Part shown: piece after piece, positions 48,510-58,447 of the stretch | Layout: the number at the start of each line of letters is the position of its first letter | Position numbering within the stretch: position 1 is the stretch's first letter | NCBI GenBank assembly: GCA_963814365.1 | Contig: CAWFCL010000004.1 | Coordinates: 495,659 to 559,658, forward strand | Direction of reading: 5' to 3' | DNA length: 64,000 nt | Source of the DNA: an uncultured Actinomycetes bacterium | GTDB lineage: Bacteria > Actinomycetota > Thermoleophilia > RBG-16-64-13 | The notes under the pieces: generated by a model | The model's input: the letters and a program-made list of their open reading frames with translations, nothing else | Told to the model about the DNA's origin: nothing | Database searches by the model: none | Translations under genes and position numbers: made by a program

Positions 48510-50165
48510 ATGCCCGTCAGCGTAAGACAGATTCTCGAGTTGGACGTGCTGAAGCAGGCACAGCTGCTGGCTGGCGGCGAGGCTGCGCTCGACCGCAAGG
48601 TCACCTCGGTCACCGTGGGCGAGGTCCCGGACATCGCCGAATGGCTGTCCGGGGGCGAGATGGTCCTTACCACGCTCTATGCGGTCAAGGGTGACTTGGA
48701 CAAACAGAGGGAGTTCTGCGAGACGGTCATGATGGCCGACGCGGCCGCTCTGTTCATCAAGACCACCCGCTTCGTGGAACAGTTGCCCGATGACGTAATA
48801 GAGCTGGCCGACAAGCGGAAGTTCCCCATCGTCGTGGTCCCCCAAGATCTGCGGTGGACACGGTTGATGCAGGACGCCACCGAGCTCATCATCAATCGTC
48901 ACGCGTCGCTGCTGGAACGGGCGCGTTCCATCCACAGGGGTCTGCTTGGCGTGGTCATCAAGGGCGGCACCTGGCAGGAGTTGATCGATGAGGTCACCAG
49001 GCTCTTGGAACGGAGGGTGGTCGTCATGGACAGCTCACTCGAGGTGCTGGGGTCGTCCAGAGACCTGCCCATCTCGGTGGCCGATTTCAAGGCCTACCTG
49101 GACCGGCCTGCCATGCGCGAGTCGTTCATCCACATGGGGGAAGCGGAGAAACTGTTCCGGTTCAGGGGGGAGGGGCTTCCCTCCATCTTCGCGTTGCCTA
49201 TCGTCGCCAGCCATTCGCGGCTGGGCTACGTGTGCATCTTCACCGAGGCGGAGGACTTGCCCAACAACGACGTCCTCGTCTTGGAGAACGCAGCCACCAT
49301 CGCCGCGCTACAGATGGCTCAAGACAGAGTCCGCTTTGAGACAGAGGTGCGCCTGAAGGGCGACTTCGTGGATGACGTGGTCAACGGCGAGGGCAGGGAC
49401 GGTGACTCACTGGTCCGCCGCGGGGCTTTTCTTGGGTGCGACCTCAGTCATGGCGCTACGGTGCTCCTGTTGGGGGTCGATGAGTTCGATGGGCTGATGA
49501 CCCGCAGAGACAAGGGGCACGAGGATCTGGAGCTTCGAGTGGAGCGGTTCTTCAGTAGATGCTCGCGCCACGTCTCTTCGACTGAGCCGTTGTCGCTAAC
49601 GAGTCTCAAGTCAGGCCGAGTGGTTGTCTTTGTGTGCGGCGCCAGTGCACAGGATGCGAACGCTCTCAAGAAGCTGGCCGGAGCATTACAGAACATAGGG
49701 AAGACGGTCGCCGACCTCAGCGTCTCCGTGGGCATCGGCGGTTTCACCCCCGCGGCCGGTCATATGGCCCGTGGGTATCAGGAAGCATTGGTGGCTCTGA
49801 ACGTGGGTCGCAGGCTGCAGGGCTTGGGCAGCATGCTCAGCTTTGACGACGTGGGCACGTACCGTCTCCTGCTGGATACTTGGGAGCGGGACCCCGAGGC
49901 GATCCGCACCCTCTACGAGGATACTATCGGGCTGGTGGACCGCTACGACAAGACGAGTAACACTCAGTTGGTCGAAACACTTGTGGTGTTCTTCAGAAAC
50001 AACGAGAACCTCACCCAGACGGCCGCCGAACTGTTCGCCCATCGCCACACCATCCGCTACCGTTTGGAGAAGATAGCCGAGATCACCGGCTTGAGCGTGT
50101 TCCAGACCGAACACAAGGAGCGCTTGGGACTCGGCCTGAAGGCGCGCAGCCTACTTCTCAGCTAG
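48510..50165 (+). CDS. PucR/CdaR-family transcriptional regulator
   Basis: N-terminal PucR domain (LLAG...EVPDIAEWLSGGEMVLTT) and C-terminal HTH (NLTQTAAELFAHRHTIRYRLEKIAEITG). Confidence 0.92.
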   Translation: MPVSVRQILELDVLKQAQLLAGGEAALDRKVTSVTVGEVPDIAEWLSGGEMVLTTLYAVKGDLDKQREFCETVMMADAAALFIKTTRFVEQLPDDVIELADKRKFPIVVVPQDLRWTRLMQDATELIINRHASLLERARSIHRGLLGVVIKGGTWQELIDEVTRLLERRVVVMDSSLEVLGSSRDLPISVADFKAYLDRPAMRESFIHMGEAEKLFRFRGEGLPSIFALPIVASHSRLGYVCIFTEAEDLPNNDVLVLENAATIAALQMAQDRVRFETEVRLKGDFVDDVVNGEGRDGDSLVRRGAFLGCDLSHGATVLLLGVDEFDGLMTRRDKGHEDLELRVERFFSRCSRHVSSTEPLSLTSLKSGRVVVFVCGASAQDANALKKLAGALQNIGKTVADLSVSVGIGGFTPAAGHMARGYQEALVALNVGRRLQGLGSMLSFDDVGTYRLLLDTWERDPEAIRTLYEDTIGLVDRYDKTSNTQLVETLVVFFRNNENLTQTAAELFAHRHTIRYRLEKIAEITGLSVFQTEHKERLGLGLKARSLLLS

Positions 50166-50203
50166 TTCAAGAGTGCCCCGGCGGGCCGATTTCCGCGAAT
50201 GCG

Positions 50204-50249
50204 TGTCCAAATGGATAAACGAGGCATCTGCGATATGTACAGGTGTACA
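50204..50249. promoter_or_regulatory. Paired palindromic boxes upstream of amtB1
   Basis: TGTCCA-aa-TGGATA (50204) and TGTACA-gg-TGTACA (50236), 32 bp apart. Confidence 0.7.
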
Positions 50250-50331
50250 TTACCTTCCTTGACAAGCCAGGGTGTAATAAGAGCGTCGTAACGCGCGCTT
50301 GAGCGTGCGTACCTAAGAAAGGAGGGTGCAG

Positions 50332-56984: not shown

Positions 56985-56999
56985 GCAAGAGGGGGCCGC

Positions 57000-58331
57000 C
57001 TATAGGATGGGCAGGTACCTATCGACCTCGTAGGGGGTGATCAGCATCTTGTATGTGTCCCATTCTTCCTGCTTGTTCTTGATCAGGTAGTCACACACGT
57101 GATCGCCCAGGGCTTCGCGCACGAACTTGGACTCGCTGAAGGCCGTGATGGCTTCGTTGAGATCACCAGGGAGTGACCCGATGCCTGCCTTGTCGCGCTC
57201 GGCCTCGGTCATCTCGAAGATGTTGTTGCTGGCCTCGGGCGGCAGCTCCATGCCCTTCTCGATACCGTCTAGGCCGGCAGCCAACATGGCGGCGAAGGCC
57301 AGGTACGGGTTGCATGCGGGGTCGGGGTTGCGCAGTTCGATGCGGGTGGCGTTCTCTTTGCCAGGCTTGTACAGCGGGACCCGGACCATCGCGGAGCGGT
57401 TGCGCCGCGACCAGCAGATGTACACGGGAGCCTCGTAGCCCGGGACCAGACGCTTGTAGGAGTTCACCCACTGGTTGGTCAGAAGGGCGATCTCGCGGAC
57501 GTGCGCCAACAAGCCGGCGATGTAGGACTTGCCGACCTTGCTGAGGTTGTACTCATCGTCGCCATCAAAGAAGGCGTTACGGTTGCCTTTGAAGAGTGAC
57601 TGATGTACGTGCATGCCCGAGCCGTTGACCCCGTAGATGGGTTTGGGCATGAAGGTGGCGTACAGCCCCTTCATCTGGGCGATCTCTTTGACGGTCAGGC
57701 GGTAGGTCATCACCTGGTCGGCCATCGTCAGTACGTCTTTGTAGCGGAGGTCGATCTCGTGCTGCGAGGGCGCCACCTCGTGGTGCGAGTACTCGACCTG
57801 GATGCCGAAGTCGTGTAGCGCATTTATGGTGTCGCGTCGCAGGTCACTGCCGGCGTCGAGGGTGGTGAGGTCGAAGTAGCCGCCCTGATCGAGGACCTCG
57901 GTGCCTTCGCTGTCCTTGAAGTAGAAGAACTCCAACTCAGGCCCCACATTCATGGTGTAGCCCATGGCCTCAGCCCTGGCCACCACCTTCCTGAGGACGT
58001 TGCGTGGATCTCCGGGGAAGGGCTCGCCATTAGGCTGGCGGATCTCGCAGAACATGCGGGCTGCTCCACCCTCGCCAGCGCGCCAGGGGAGGACGCTGAA
58101 GGTGCTGGGGTCGGGGTACGCGACCATGTCCGACTCTTCGATGCGGGCAAAGCCCAGGATGGACGAACCGTCGAAGCCCATGCCTTCGTCGAAAGCGCCC
58201 TCCAACTCCGCCGGTGTCACGGCGAAGCTTTTGAGGAAGCCAAGCACGTCCGTAAACCAGAAGCGGACGAACTTGATCTTCTTCTCCTCAACGATCTTTA
58301 GGACATCCTCTTTAGTGAGTTTGTCAGCCAT
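57000..58331 (-). CDS. glnA: Glutamine synthetase type I
   Basis: FDGSSI, GPELEF, HHEVAPSQHEID, ATFMPKP...NGSGMHVH, RIELRNPDPACNPY. 443 aa, GSI-alpha size. Confidence 0.97.
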   Translation of the reverse strand: MADKLTKEDVLKIVEEKKIKFVRFWFTDVLGFLKSFAVTPAELEGAFDEGMGFDGSSILGFARIEESDMVAYPDPSTFSVLPWRAGEGGAARMFCEIRQPNGEPFPGDPRNVLRKVVARAEAMGYTMNVGPELEFFYFKDSEGTEVLDQGGYFDLTTLDAGSDLRRDTINALHDFGIQVEYSHHEVAPSQHEIDLRYKDVLTMADQVMTYRLTVKEIAQMKGLYATFMPKPIYGVNGSGMHVHQSLFKGNRNAFFDGDDEYNLSKVGKSYIAGLLAHVREIALLTNQWVNSYKRLVPGYEAPVYICWSRRNRSAMVRVPLYKPGKENATRIELRNPDPACNPYLAFAAMLAAGLDGIEKGMELPPEASNNIFEMTEAERDKAGIGSLPGDLNEAITAFSESKFVREALGDHVCDYLIKNKQEEWDTYKMLITPYEVDRYLPIL

Positions 58332-58401
58332 CAGCCGCTCCTTTCACGGATCGGGTCGTGTCCGAGGATACAAACATAGCAGCAGATATCACGCTGTTGT
58401 C

Positions 58402-58447
58402 CATCCATGTGGCCAGACTTGCTACCTTGCGGATGTACACATGGCCA
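58402..58447. promoter_or_regulatory. Paired palindromic boxes upstream of glnA
   Basis: CATCCA-tg-TGGCCA (58402) and TGTACA-ca-TGGCCA (58434), 32 bp apart. Confidence 0.65.

Follow-up and report, generated by a model that had tools for sequence, protein, structure and literature searches.

To our knowledge, few types of regulator govern nitrogen assimilation in prokaryotes: NtrC, the OmpR-type GlnR, the MerR-type TnrA/GlnR, AmtR, NtcA and NrpR. AmtR (TetR-type, Corynebacterium), TnrA/GlnR (MerR-type, Bacillus), NtcA (CRP-type, cyanobacteria), NrpR (archaea) and NtrC with sigma-54 are the master nitrogen regulators of their lineages. We know of no nitrogen regulator described for Thermoleophilia and Rubrobacteria, deep actinobacterial classes that are abundant in soils and deserts. 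Here we report on a stretch of 64,000 nucleotides (the window; G000:C4:495659-559658) from the genome G000, a member of the Gaiellales, class Thermoleophilia (2.6 Mb, 61% G+C, 10 contigs), in which a PucR-family regulator gene lies directly upstream of two amtB-glnK units and paired boxes precede both units and glnA. We read these box pairs as operators of a nitrogen regulon and propose the PucR-family protein as their binder, with a probability of roughly 0.65 on comparative sequence evidence.

GabR of Corynebacterium glutamicum, the activator of gabTDP, is an octamer whose binding sites are two inverted repeats directly preceding the -35 element; both repeats are needed for strong binding, and about 60 bp are covered (PMC7652997, accessible part). 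GabR resembles the system described here in its protein family, its actinobacterial host and, if the binder is the one proposed, its paired dyads abutting the -35 region. It differs in being a local regulator of one catabolic operon, with 21-bp repeats, no GGDEF-like domain and a gene divergent from its target (as far as the accessible part of that source goes), whereas here 14-bp dyads stand at six promoters of the central route of glutamine synthetase (GS), glutamate synthase (GOGAT) and Amt. Operators reported as inverted repeats include those of PutR (17 bp) and AdeR (24 bp) (PMC7652997, accessible part). Bacillus subtilis PucR, PutR and AdeR and Escherichia coli CdaR belong to the same domain family as the window protein but govern the catabolism of purines, proline, alanine and sugar diacids (same source, same part), and none of the four is reported as controlling amtB, glnA or gltBD in the accessible texts of the literature searched. 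The initial annotation of this DNA had stated that PucR/CdaR proteins usually control catabolic operons, in agreement with that account. GlnR of Streptomyces and Mycobacterium, an orphan OmpR-type protein, activates amtB-glnK, glnA and gltBD under nitrogen limitation (PMC10704036, accessible part); it shares phylum and target set with the system here, but it is of another protein family and recognises direct repeats of 5 nt set 11 nt apart.

The genes and sites concerned are listed below (+, forward strand; -, reverse strand). Mismatches are counted against TGKMCA-N2-TGKMCA, and spacing is measured from start to start.

48510..50165, +, PucR-family transcription regulator, 551 aa, candidate binder of the boxes (Pfam PF07905, 5e-32; PF17853; PF13556)
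50204..50217, +, amtB1 distal dyad, TGTCCAAATGGATA, 1 mismatch (28.5 with a position weight matrix (PWM) built from relatives only, the best match in the genome)
50236..50249, +, amtB1 proximal dyad, TGTACAGGTGTACA, 0 mismatches (pattern match, PWM)
50273..50278, +, -10-like hexamer TGTAAT of amtB1, 23 nt after the proximal dyad (conserved at that distance in relatives)
50332..51558, +, amtB1, ammonium transporter (PF00909, 7.5e-133)
51578..51919, +, glnK1, PII protein (PF00543)
51993..52006, +, amtB2 distal dyad, GGGCCGTATGGCCA, 2 mismatches (pattern match; PWM 27.6)
52025..52038, +, amtB2 proximal dyad, TGTCCGTATGGCGA, 2 mismatches (pattern match, PWM)
52062..52067, +, -10-like hexamer TGAAAT of amtB2, 23 nt after the proximal dyad (alignment)
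52121..53353, +, amtB2, ammonium transporter, likely start GTG 52121 (PF00909, 8.6e-126)
53373..53714, +, glnK2, PII protein (PF00543)
57000..58331, -, glnA, glutamine synthetase type I (PF00120, PF03951)
58373..58378, -, -10-like hexamer TATGTT of glnA, 23 nt after the proximal dyad (sequence, alignment)
58402..58415, -, glnA proximal dyad, CATCCATGTGGCCA, on the minus strand TGGCCACATGGATG, 2 mismatches (pattern match)
58434..58447, -, glnA distal dyad, TGTACACATGGCCA, on the minus strand TGGCCATGTGTACA, 0 mismatches (pattern match)
58450..59883, -, gltD, glutamate synthase small subunit (PF07992, PF14691)
59890..64000, -, gltB, glutamate synthase large subunit, which leaves the window and starts at C4:560141 (Pfam)

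TGKMCA is its own reverse complement, and each box is therefore a 14-bp dyad; in the site alignment the inner half-sites (TGTACA) are the best conserved part. The six boxes that the initial annotation had pointed out were found again in the sequence with 0-2 mismatches (1, 0, 2, 2, 2 and 0 in the order listed), and the spacing of 32 bp is exact in all three window pairs. Its further observations on the amtB genes also hold: 83 bp separate the end of the proximal box from the likely start of each (GTG 50332 and GTG 52121), the two intergenic regions have little in common beyond the boxes and the -10-like hexamer, and the gene directly upstream, at 48510-50165, is of the PucR family by its PF07905, GGDEF_2 and HTH_30 domains. 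The longest open reading frame (ORF) of amtB1 runs from 50326; its likely start in the sequence is the GTG at 50332, behind AGGAGG.

Single boxes with up to two mismatches number 1021 in the whole G000 genome, and the only two perfect ones both lie within these pairs. Pairs at a spacing of 32 number five, all of them intergenic, with a mean of 0.54 over spacings from 14 to 200; the reversed pattern, serving as control, gives 0 pairs at spacing 32 in G000. One hundred local triplet shuffles yielded on average 0.26 pairs and at most 2, so that 0/100 reached five. The five pairs precede amtB1-glnK1, amtB2-glnK2, glnA, gltBD and a third amtB. The initial annotation had proposed a check on whether the spaced dyad is frequent in the genome; it is rare, and every instance stands before nitrogen genes. 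A site at the gltB promoter had been predicted and is present at C4:560211-560256, 69 nt upstream of gltB and about 550 bp past the window end; the pair upstream of the third amtB (amtB3) is on another contig, at C5:198785. At spacing 33 G000 has four pairs, each within an ORF or at its beginning, which are probably chance matches.

A PWM was trained without any G000 sequence, on 19 intergenic regions between the PucR gene and amtB in other genomes, and used to scan 5.19 million G000 positions. Scores above the background maximum (12.0) were obtained for amtB1 (28.5), amtB2 (27.6), amtB3 (27.4), a new site at C4:1360207 (24.8) and glnA (13.1). This sixth site precedes genes for FlpD/MvhD-like and MTHFR-like proteins and two glutamate-synthase-domain genes, and all six G000 sites are found at genes of ammonium uptake or GS/GOGAT-type assimilation. 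There is next to no likelihood that the boxes are chance matches, or leftovers of the amtB-glnK duplication, with no regulatory role. The amtB1-glnK1 and amtB2-glnK2 units are paralogous and their upstream regions could share ancestry, but those regions are alike in little but the boxes and the -10, the same pair stands at the unrelated promoters of glnA, gltB, amtB3 and the FlpD operon, no shuffle reaches five pairs, and the sites are conserved across families and classes. Recovery by the relatives-only PWM, together with the shuffles, effectively refutes this explanation.

The promoters share a fixed layout. The consensus of the aligned sites is a distal dyad of about tgTCCAAATGTACA, 18 nt, a proximal dyad of about TGTACrnnnGGCGA, 23 nt and TGTAAT. 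Of 25 aligned sites, which are of the Gaiellales type, 21 have a -10-like hexamer exactly 23 nt past the proximal box and 3 more have one at 24-25 nt. All six G000 promoters have one at 23-24 nt (TGTAAT, TGAAAT, TATGTT, TAACCT, TACAGT and TATGGT, the last being that of the sixth site, at 23 nt). If a 17-nt spacer is assumed, the end of the proximal dyad coincides with the start of the -35 hexamer, and the dyad centres fall at about -42.5 (proximal) and about -74.5 (distal). A scan with the sigma-70 consensus found no full promoter (-35/-10 pair) on the gene strand, as would be expected with a weak -35; the -35 regions are poor. The proximal site thus abuts a weak -35 region at a fixed distance from the -10, as is required of a class II (-41.5-type) position, the start position here being taken from the -10. 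With the -10 so assigned, the geometry probably is that of an activator-dependent promoter at which the protein activates from a class II position.

A PucR-type protein might instead bind the boxes as a repressor or dual regulator, for example by a DNA loop between the dyads that occludes the promoter under nitrogen excess. We consider this improbable. The -10 is assigned from conservation and the start positions from the -10, TTGACA occurs 9 nt after the amtB1 proximal box and makes other promoter assignments possible, and B. subtilis PucR acts both ways; yet all studied PucR-type regulators save PucR itself are activators (both points from the accessible part of PMC7652997). Moreover, the fixed gap of 23 nt between box and -10 puts the box just upstream of the -35 and not over the core promoter, and the poor -35 regions, with no complete consensus promoter on the gene strand, speak against repression as well.

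Under the proposed activation by the PucR-family protein, one regulator dimer would occupy each 14-bp dyad. The dyads are 32 bp apart, or about three helical turns, and both dimers would therefore sit on the same face of the DNA, possibly held within one oligomer, a tetramer or larger. With the centre of its proximal dyad near -42.5, the regulator would recruit RNA polymerase, presumably under nitrogen shortage. It probably responds to a small metabolite sensed either through its GAF-like middle or through the PucR domain at its N-terminus; alternatively, the signal could be PII/GlnK. The predicted regulon consists of amtB1-glnK1, amtB2-glnK2, amtB3, glnA, gltBD and the operon with FlpD-like, MTHFR-like and glutamate-synthase-domain genes.

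Relatives were searched for the regulator, its site and the regulon. In 17 of the 30 loci taken from 40 relatives, amtB is directly downstream of an ortholog of at least 60% identity. Of 24 intergenic regions, two of them duplicates, 21 have a best pair with mismatches at no more than 5 of the 24 specified positions. Among 65 loci from species-representative genomes, chosen solely by similarity to the regulator, amtB adjoins a PucR homolog in 45 and is directly downstream of it in 41.

The amtB-adjacent loci include 28 from Rubrobacteraceae, whose regulator homologs have about 35% identity over residues 226-549. All 28 of their loci (28/28) have TGTACAnnnGGCTA followed by TAGACT, with a gap of 23 nt (21 loci) or 24 nt (7 loci), and a second TGTAC box stands 44 nt upstream in 22 of the 28. 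Two classes thus share the proximal dyad and the gap from it to the -10, and the distance between the dyads shifts by about one helical turn. A two-box search of Rubrobacter taiwanensis (G041) gave 5 weak matches vs 3 for the control, none beside a nitrogen gene; it missed the known amtB site there because the spacing is 45.

The family f6 has regulators of about 40% identity whose gene is not beside amtB. There a pair precedes the regulator gene itself by 90-120 bp, and the -10 that follows at 23 nt is directed into that gene; this layout was found in 3/3 loci and accounts for 5 of 7 f6 pattern matches. G000, in contrast, has no box pair before its regulator gene. Genome G029 has another pair before glnA. 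Orthologs of the window-type glnA have the pair in 8 of 10 cases in ortholog-bearing genomes, and paralogous glnA genes (65-69% identity) in 0 of 8; left out of this count were L136 (G015) and L139 (G033), which are cut by contig ends, and L145 (G005), a partial match. The genomes G007, G009 and G017 yielded neither ortholog nor amtB with the queries used, and there is no pair at their glnA, which is the paralog.

With up to 3 mismatches allowed, the pattern occurs in 13 of 41 relatives vs 2 of 41 for the reversed control. The 17 pattern loci in these relatives precede gltB (5), glnA (4), amtB1 (2), amtB3 (1), the regulator's own gene (1), an HdrD-like CCG/4Fe-4S gene (3) and a periplasmic binding protein gene (1, in G028), so that 16 of the 17 are at gltB, glnA, amtB, the regulator gene or an HdrD-like gene. 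The HdrD-like gene of G010 heads a cluster that ends in a Glu_synthase-domain gene and glnA. A class sample of 201 genomes has the pattern in 39 vs 7 for the reversed control, and 12 of 17 further class-level matches that were fetched precede amtB, glnK-amtB, gltB or glnA. Families f4 and f7 together have the homolog in 0/49 genomes and the pattern in 1/49. The initial annotation had looked to relatives carrying the regulator for conservation of the site, and conservation is seen there in PucR-amtB intergenic regions, at glnA orthologs and at the other regulon loci. We regard the operator pairs and the regulon as almost certainly real. That the adjacent PucR-type protein binds the boxes is quite probable on the comparative evidence.

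Several observations weigh against the proposed operators and binder. The link between pattern and regulator is loose in the class sample: of 119 genomes with a homolog (E <= 1e-60), 31 have the strict pattern, vs 8 of 82 without one. In three of these 8 (G087, G092 and G151) a pair precedes amtB, and the genomes encode only shorter and more distant PucR-like proteins (E 1e-42 to 1e-52). A good site also occurs in G010 (87% complete), where the search detected a PucR N-domain fragment and no ortholog. In family f3, 31 of 35 genomes encode homologs and 1 of 35 has the pattern; these homologs are probably paralogs. Orthologs at 50-54% identity (L016-L018, L021, L071-L076) have the pair in 1 of 10 cases. 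A variant operator was sought in such orthologs (L071-L076 and similar), and no consistent geometry was found; single TGTACA/TGTATA boxes occur near TATAAT-like hexamers upstream of the regulator gene. The gltB site scores under 8 with the amtB-trained PWM, the -10 hexamers are assigned from conservation and nothing else, and the related genomes are non-independent samples. A look-up of RNA evidence for 48510-58447 listed no sequencing run. The recognition helix HRHT[IV]RYR is identical in amtB-linked and unlinked homologs, in part because the loci were chosen by that peptide, and therefore offers no argument on specificity. Octameric Lrp/AsnC-type proteins would also be compatible with a spacing of about 32 bp.

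These points bear on whether the boxes could be a real nitrogen operator bound by another regulator, such as an octameric Lrp/AsnC-type protein, with the PucR gene merely co-regulated or a local neighbour. We hold this to be rather unlikely. Sites without a close homolog in G010, G087, G092 and G151, several ortholog-bearing genomes without the strict pattern, and a periodicity of about 32 bp with AT-rich dyad centres such as CCAAATGT, which would suit Lrp-like proteins, fit such a regulator. Yet G010 is only 87% complete, and in G028 and G087, which belong to f5, a shorter PucR-like gene is found in the vicinity of the site and amtB (there is none nearby in G092 and G151). The PucR gene adjoins the site in dozens of loci of Thermoleophilia and Rubrobacteraceae, the pair stands on the regulator's own promoter in f6, and G000 has a single PucR-type protein and every one of its sites at a nitrogen gene. 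A characterised PucR-type activator, moreover, binds at two dyads abutting the -35 (PMC7652997, accessible part).

The proposed binder, the window's PucR-type protein, has an N-terminal PucR domain, a GAF-like middle, a GGDEF-like domain and a C-terminal HTH_30 domain. Three Pfam domains exceed their cut-offs and place it in the PucR family (bit scores/cut-offs 111.1/33.5, 66.3/27 and 51.4/24.5). Its NCBIfam matches to AdeR, CdaR and PmfR are weak, all far under the cut-offs. A profile search of the genome showed it to be the sole HTH_30 (PucR-type) protein in G000. The AF2 model of the regulator has a mean pLDDT (predicted local distance difference test) of 84.4; its C-terminal half resembles the C-terminal fragment of Rv2242 (PDB 9f80; Foldseek E 3.7e-10), and its middle domain resembles the GAF domain of CodY (TMt 0.69), which makes a small-molecule sensor domain plausible. 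Rv2242 of Mycobacterium tuberculosis and CodY are the best structural matches, with a sequence identity of just 15-25%, and the modelled likeness informs on the fold and on a likely small-molecule-binding domain, not on the ligand or regulon.

Many genomes of the genus also have a stand-alone ORF of about 250-300 aa that contains the N-terminal PucR domain (about 30% identity) and no other, for example at G010:C26:8677-9066 and G007:C21:4732-5112; it was not found in G000.

The six G000 promoters were also compared with operators of known nitrogen regulators. AmtR, TnrA/GlnR, NtcA, NrpR and NtrC have amtB-glnK and glnA among their targets, as does the system here. The consensus sequences are TGTNA-N7-TNACA for TnrA/GlnR (MerR), GTA-N8-TAC for NtcA, TGTGA-N6-TCACA for CRP/GlxR, CTAT-N6-ATAG for AmtR and GGAA-N6-TTCC for NrpR. 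With the TnrA, NtcA, CRP, AmtR and NrpR consensus in the form given here, no match in any of the six promoters is closer than 2-5 mismatches, and unlike the targets, the operators of AmtR, TnrA/GlnR, NtcA and NrpR are therefore unmatched. The dyad here, TGTA-N6-TACA, is 2 bp shorter than NtcA or CRP sites. A search for sigma-54 (PF04552) gave no match in G000 (87% complete) and, as a control, was positive in 4 of 14 reference genomes. G000 has eight OmpR-type (Trans_reg_C) proteins, of which 0 of the 7 scanned exceed an NCBIfam equivalog cut-off in a comparison made without a GlnR reference sequence, and one apparent orphan has RegX3 as its best PDB match; none of the eight could be assigned as GlnR. 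The GlnR box is made of 5-nt a- and b-sites with 6 nt between them (gTnAc-n6-GaAAc and variants; Table 2 of PMC10704036, accessible part), and its best matches in the six 196-bp promoter regions have 2-4 mismatches of 8-10 specified bases. No PucR-type regulator of amtB, glnA or gltBD is described in the accessible texts of the literature searched, which did not cover subscription journals. With no operator of a known regulator in the promoters and no such PucR-type regulator in those texts, the suggestion of a possibly undescribed mode of ammonium-assimilation control is supported. What would be new is a known regulator family and binding mode in a role not described for that family.

We lean slightly towards a broader proposal. 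In Thermoleophilia, and probably Rubrobacteria, a dedicated clade of PucR-family activators may be the master regulator of ammonium assimilation, replacing GlnR/AmtR. Such a clade would add one more class, as yet undescribed, to the bacterial nitrogen master regulators. It would act through a pair of TGTACA-type dyads three turns apart (four in Rubrobacteraceae), the proximal one at -42, with a CodY-like GAF sensor and a regulon that includes an Hdr/Mvh-like and glutamate-synthase-domain operon, maybe a non-canonical GOGAT. If this is true, a family known almost solely for local catabolic control would provide a global switch for amtB, PII, GS and GOGAT. Largely uncultured lineages would gain a defined operator and a testable regulon, their nitrogen status could be read from metatranscriptomes, and the operon would point to a possibly new GOGAT-type enzyme system co-regulated with glnA. 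Cultured Rubrobacter species have the homologous arrangement of regulator gene, operator and amtB, which makes the case directly testable.

The operon behind the sixth site (G000:C4:1360246-1364777; L126 5247-9778) includes two overlapping ORFs with Glu_synthase (FMN) and 4Fe-4S domains. A similar cluster beside glnA is headed by an HdrD-like CCG protein in relatives (L045-L047, L165). The sixth-site operon may encode a non-canonical, Hdr/Mvh-linked glutamate synthase.

Other features of the window are the following.

45696-48467, +, three paralogous GT2 glycosyltransferase genes in a row (Pfam)
51950..51981, +, perfect GC-rich inverted repeat of 32 nt, 3' of glnK1 (read from the sequence)
53737-56895, -, PAS/GAF hybrid histidine kinase, 1052 aa (Pfam)

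The amtB-glnK unit is a tandem duplicate (50326-53714), with near-identical coding stretches near the 5' ends (about 50385-50500 vs 52180-52300). Near-identical 5' coding sequence with promoters that differ, boxes and -10 aside, suggests gene conversion or a recent duplication. The inverted repeat at 51950-51981 is a probable factor-independent terminator of the actinobacterial type that would part the two units; it was not picked up by a scan for T-run-dependent terminators because it has no T-run. The hybrid kinase between glnK2 and glnA has four PAS domains, a GAF domain, HisKA/HATPase and a receiver, and no DNA-binding response regulator is encoded alongside it.

The gltB gene is in two overlapping frames, a C-terminal ORF at 59890-62706 and an N-terminal ORF from 62267 to past 64000. 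The apparent frameshift within 62267-62706 could be an assembly error or a broken gene; split PucR or amtB matches also occur in several related loci from metagenome-assembled genomes. A gene divergent from gltB (G000:C4:560445-561710; L002 1446-2711) has only a partial match to the carbamoyl-phosphate-synthase small-chain domain. The gltB box pair stands in the intergenic region common to both, an arrangement kept in G001, G002 and G013, and the divergent gene might be co-regulated with gltB. On the other side of the window's regulator gene, the GT2 trio stops 43 bp short of it, and the last GT2 gene also precedes the regulator in the closest relatives (L004-L006).

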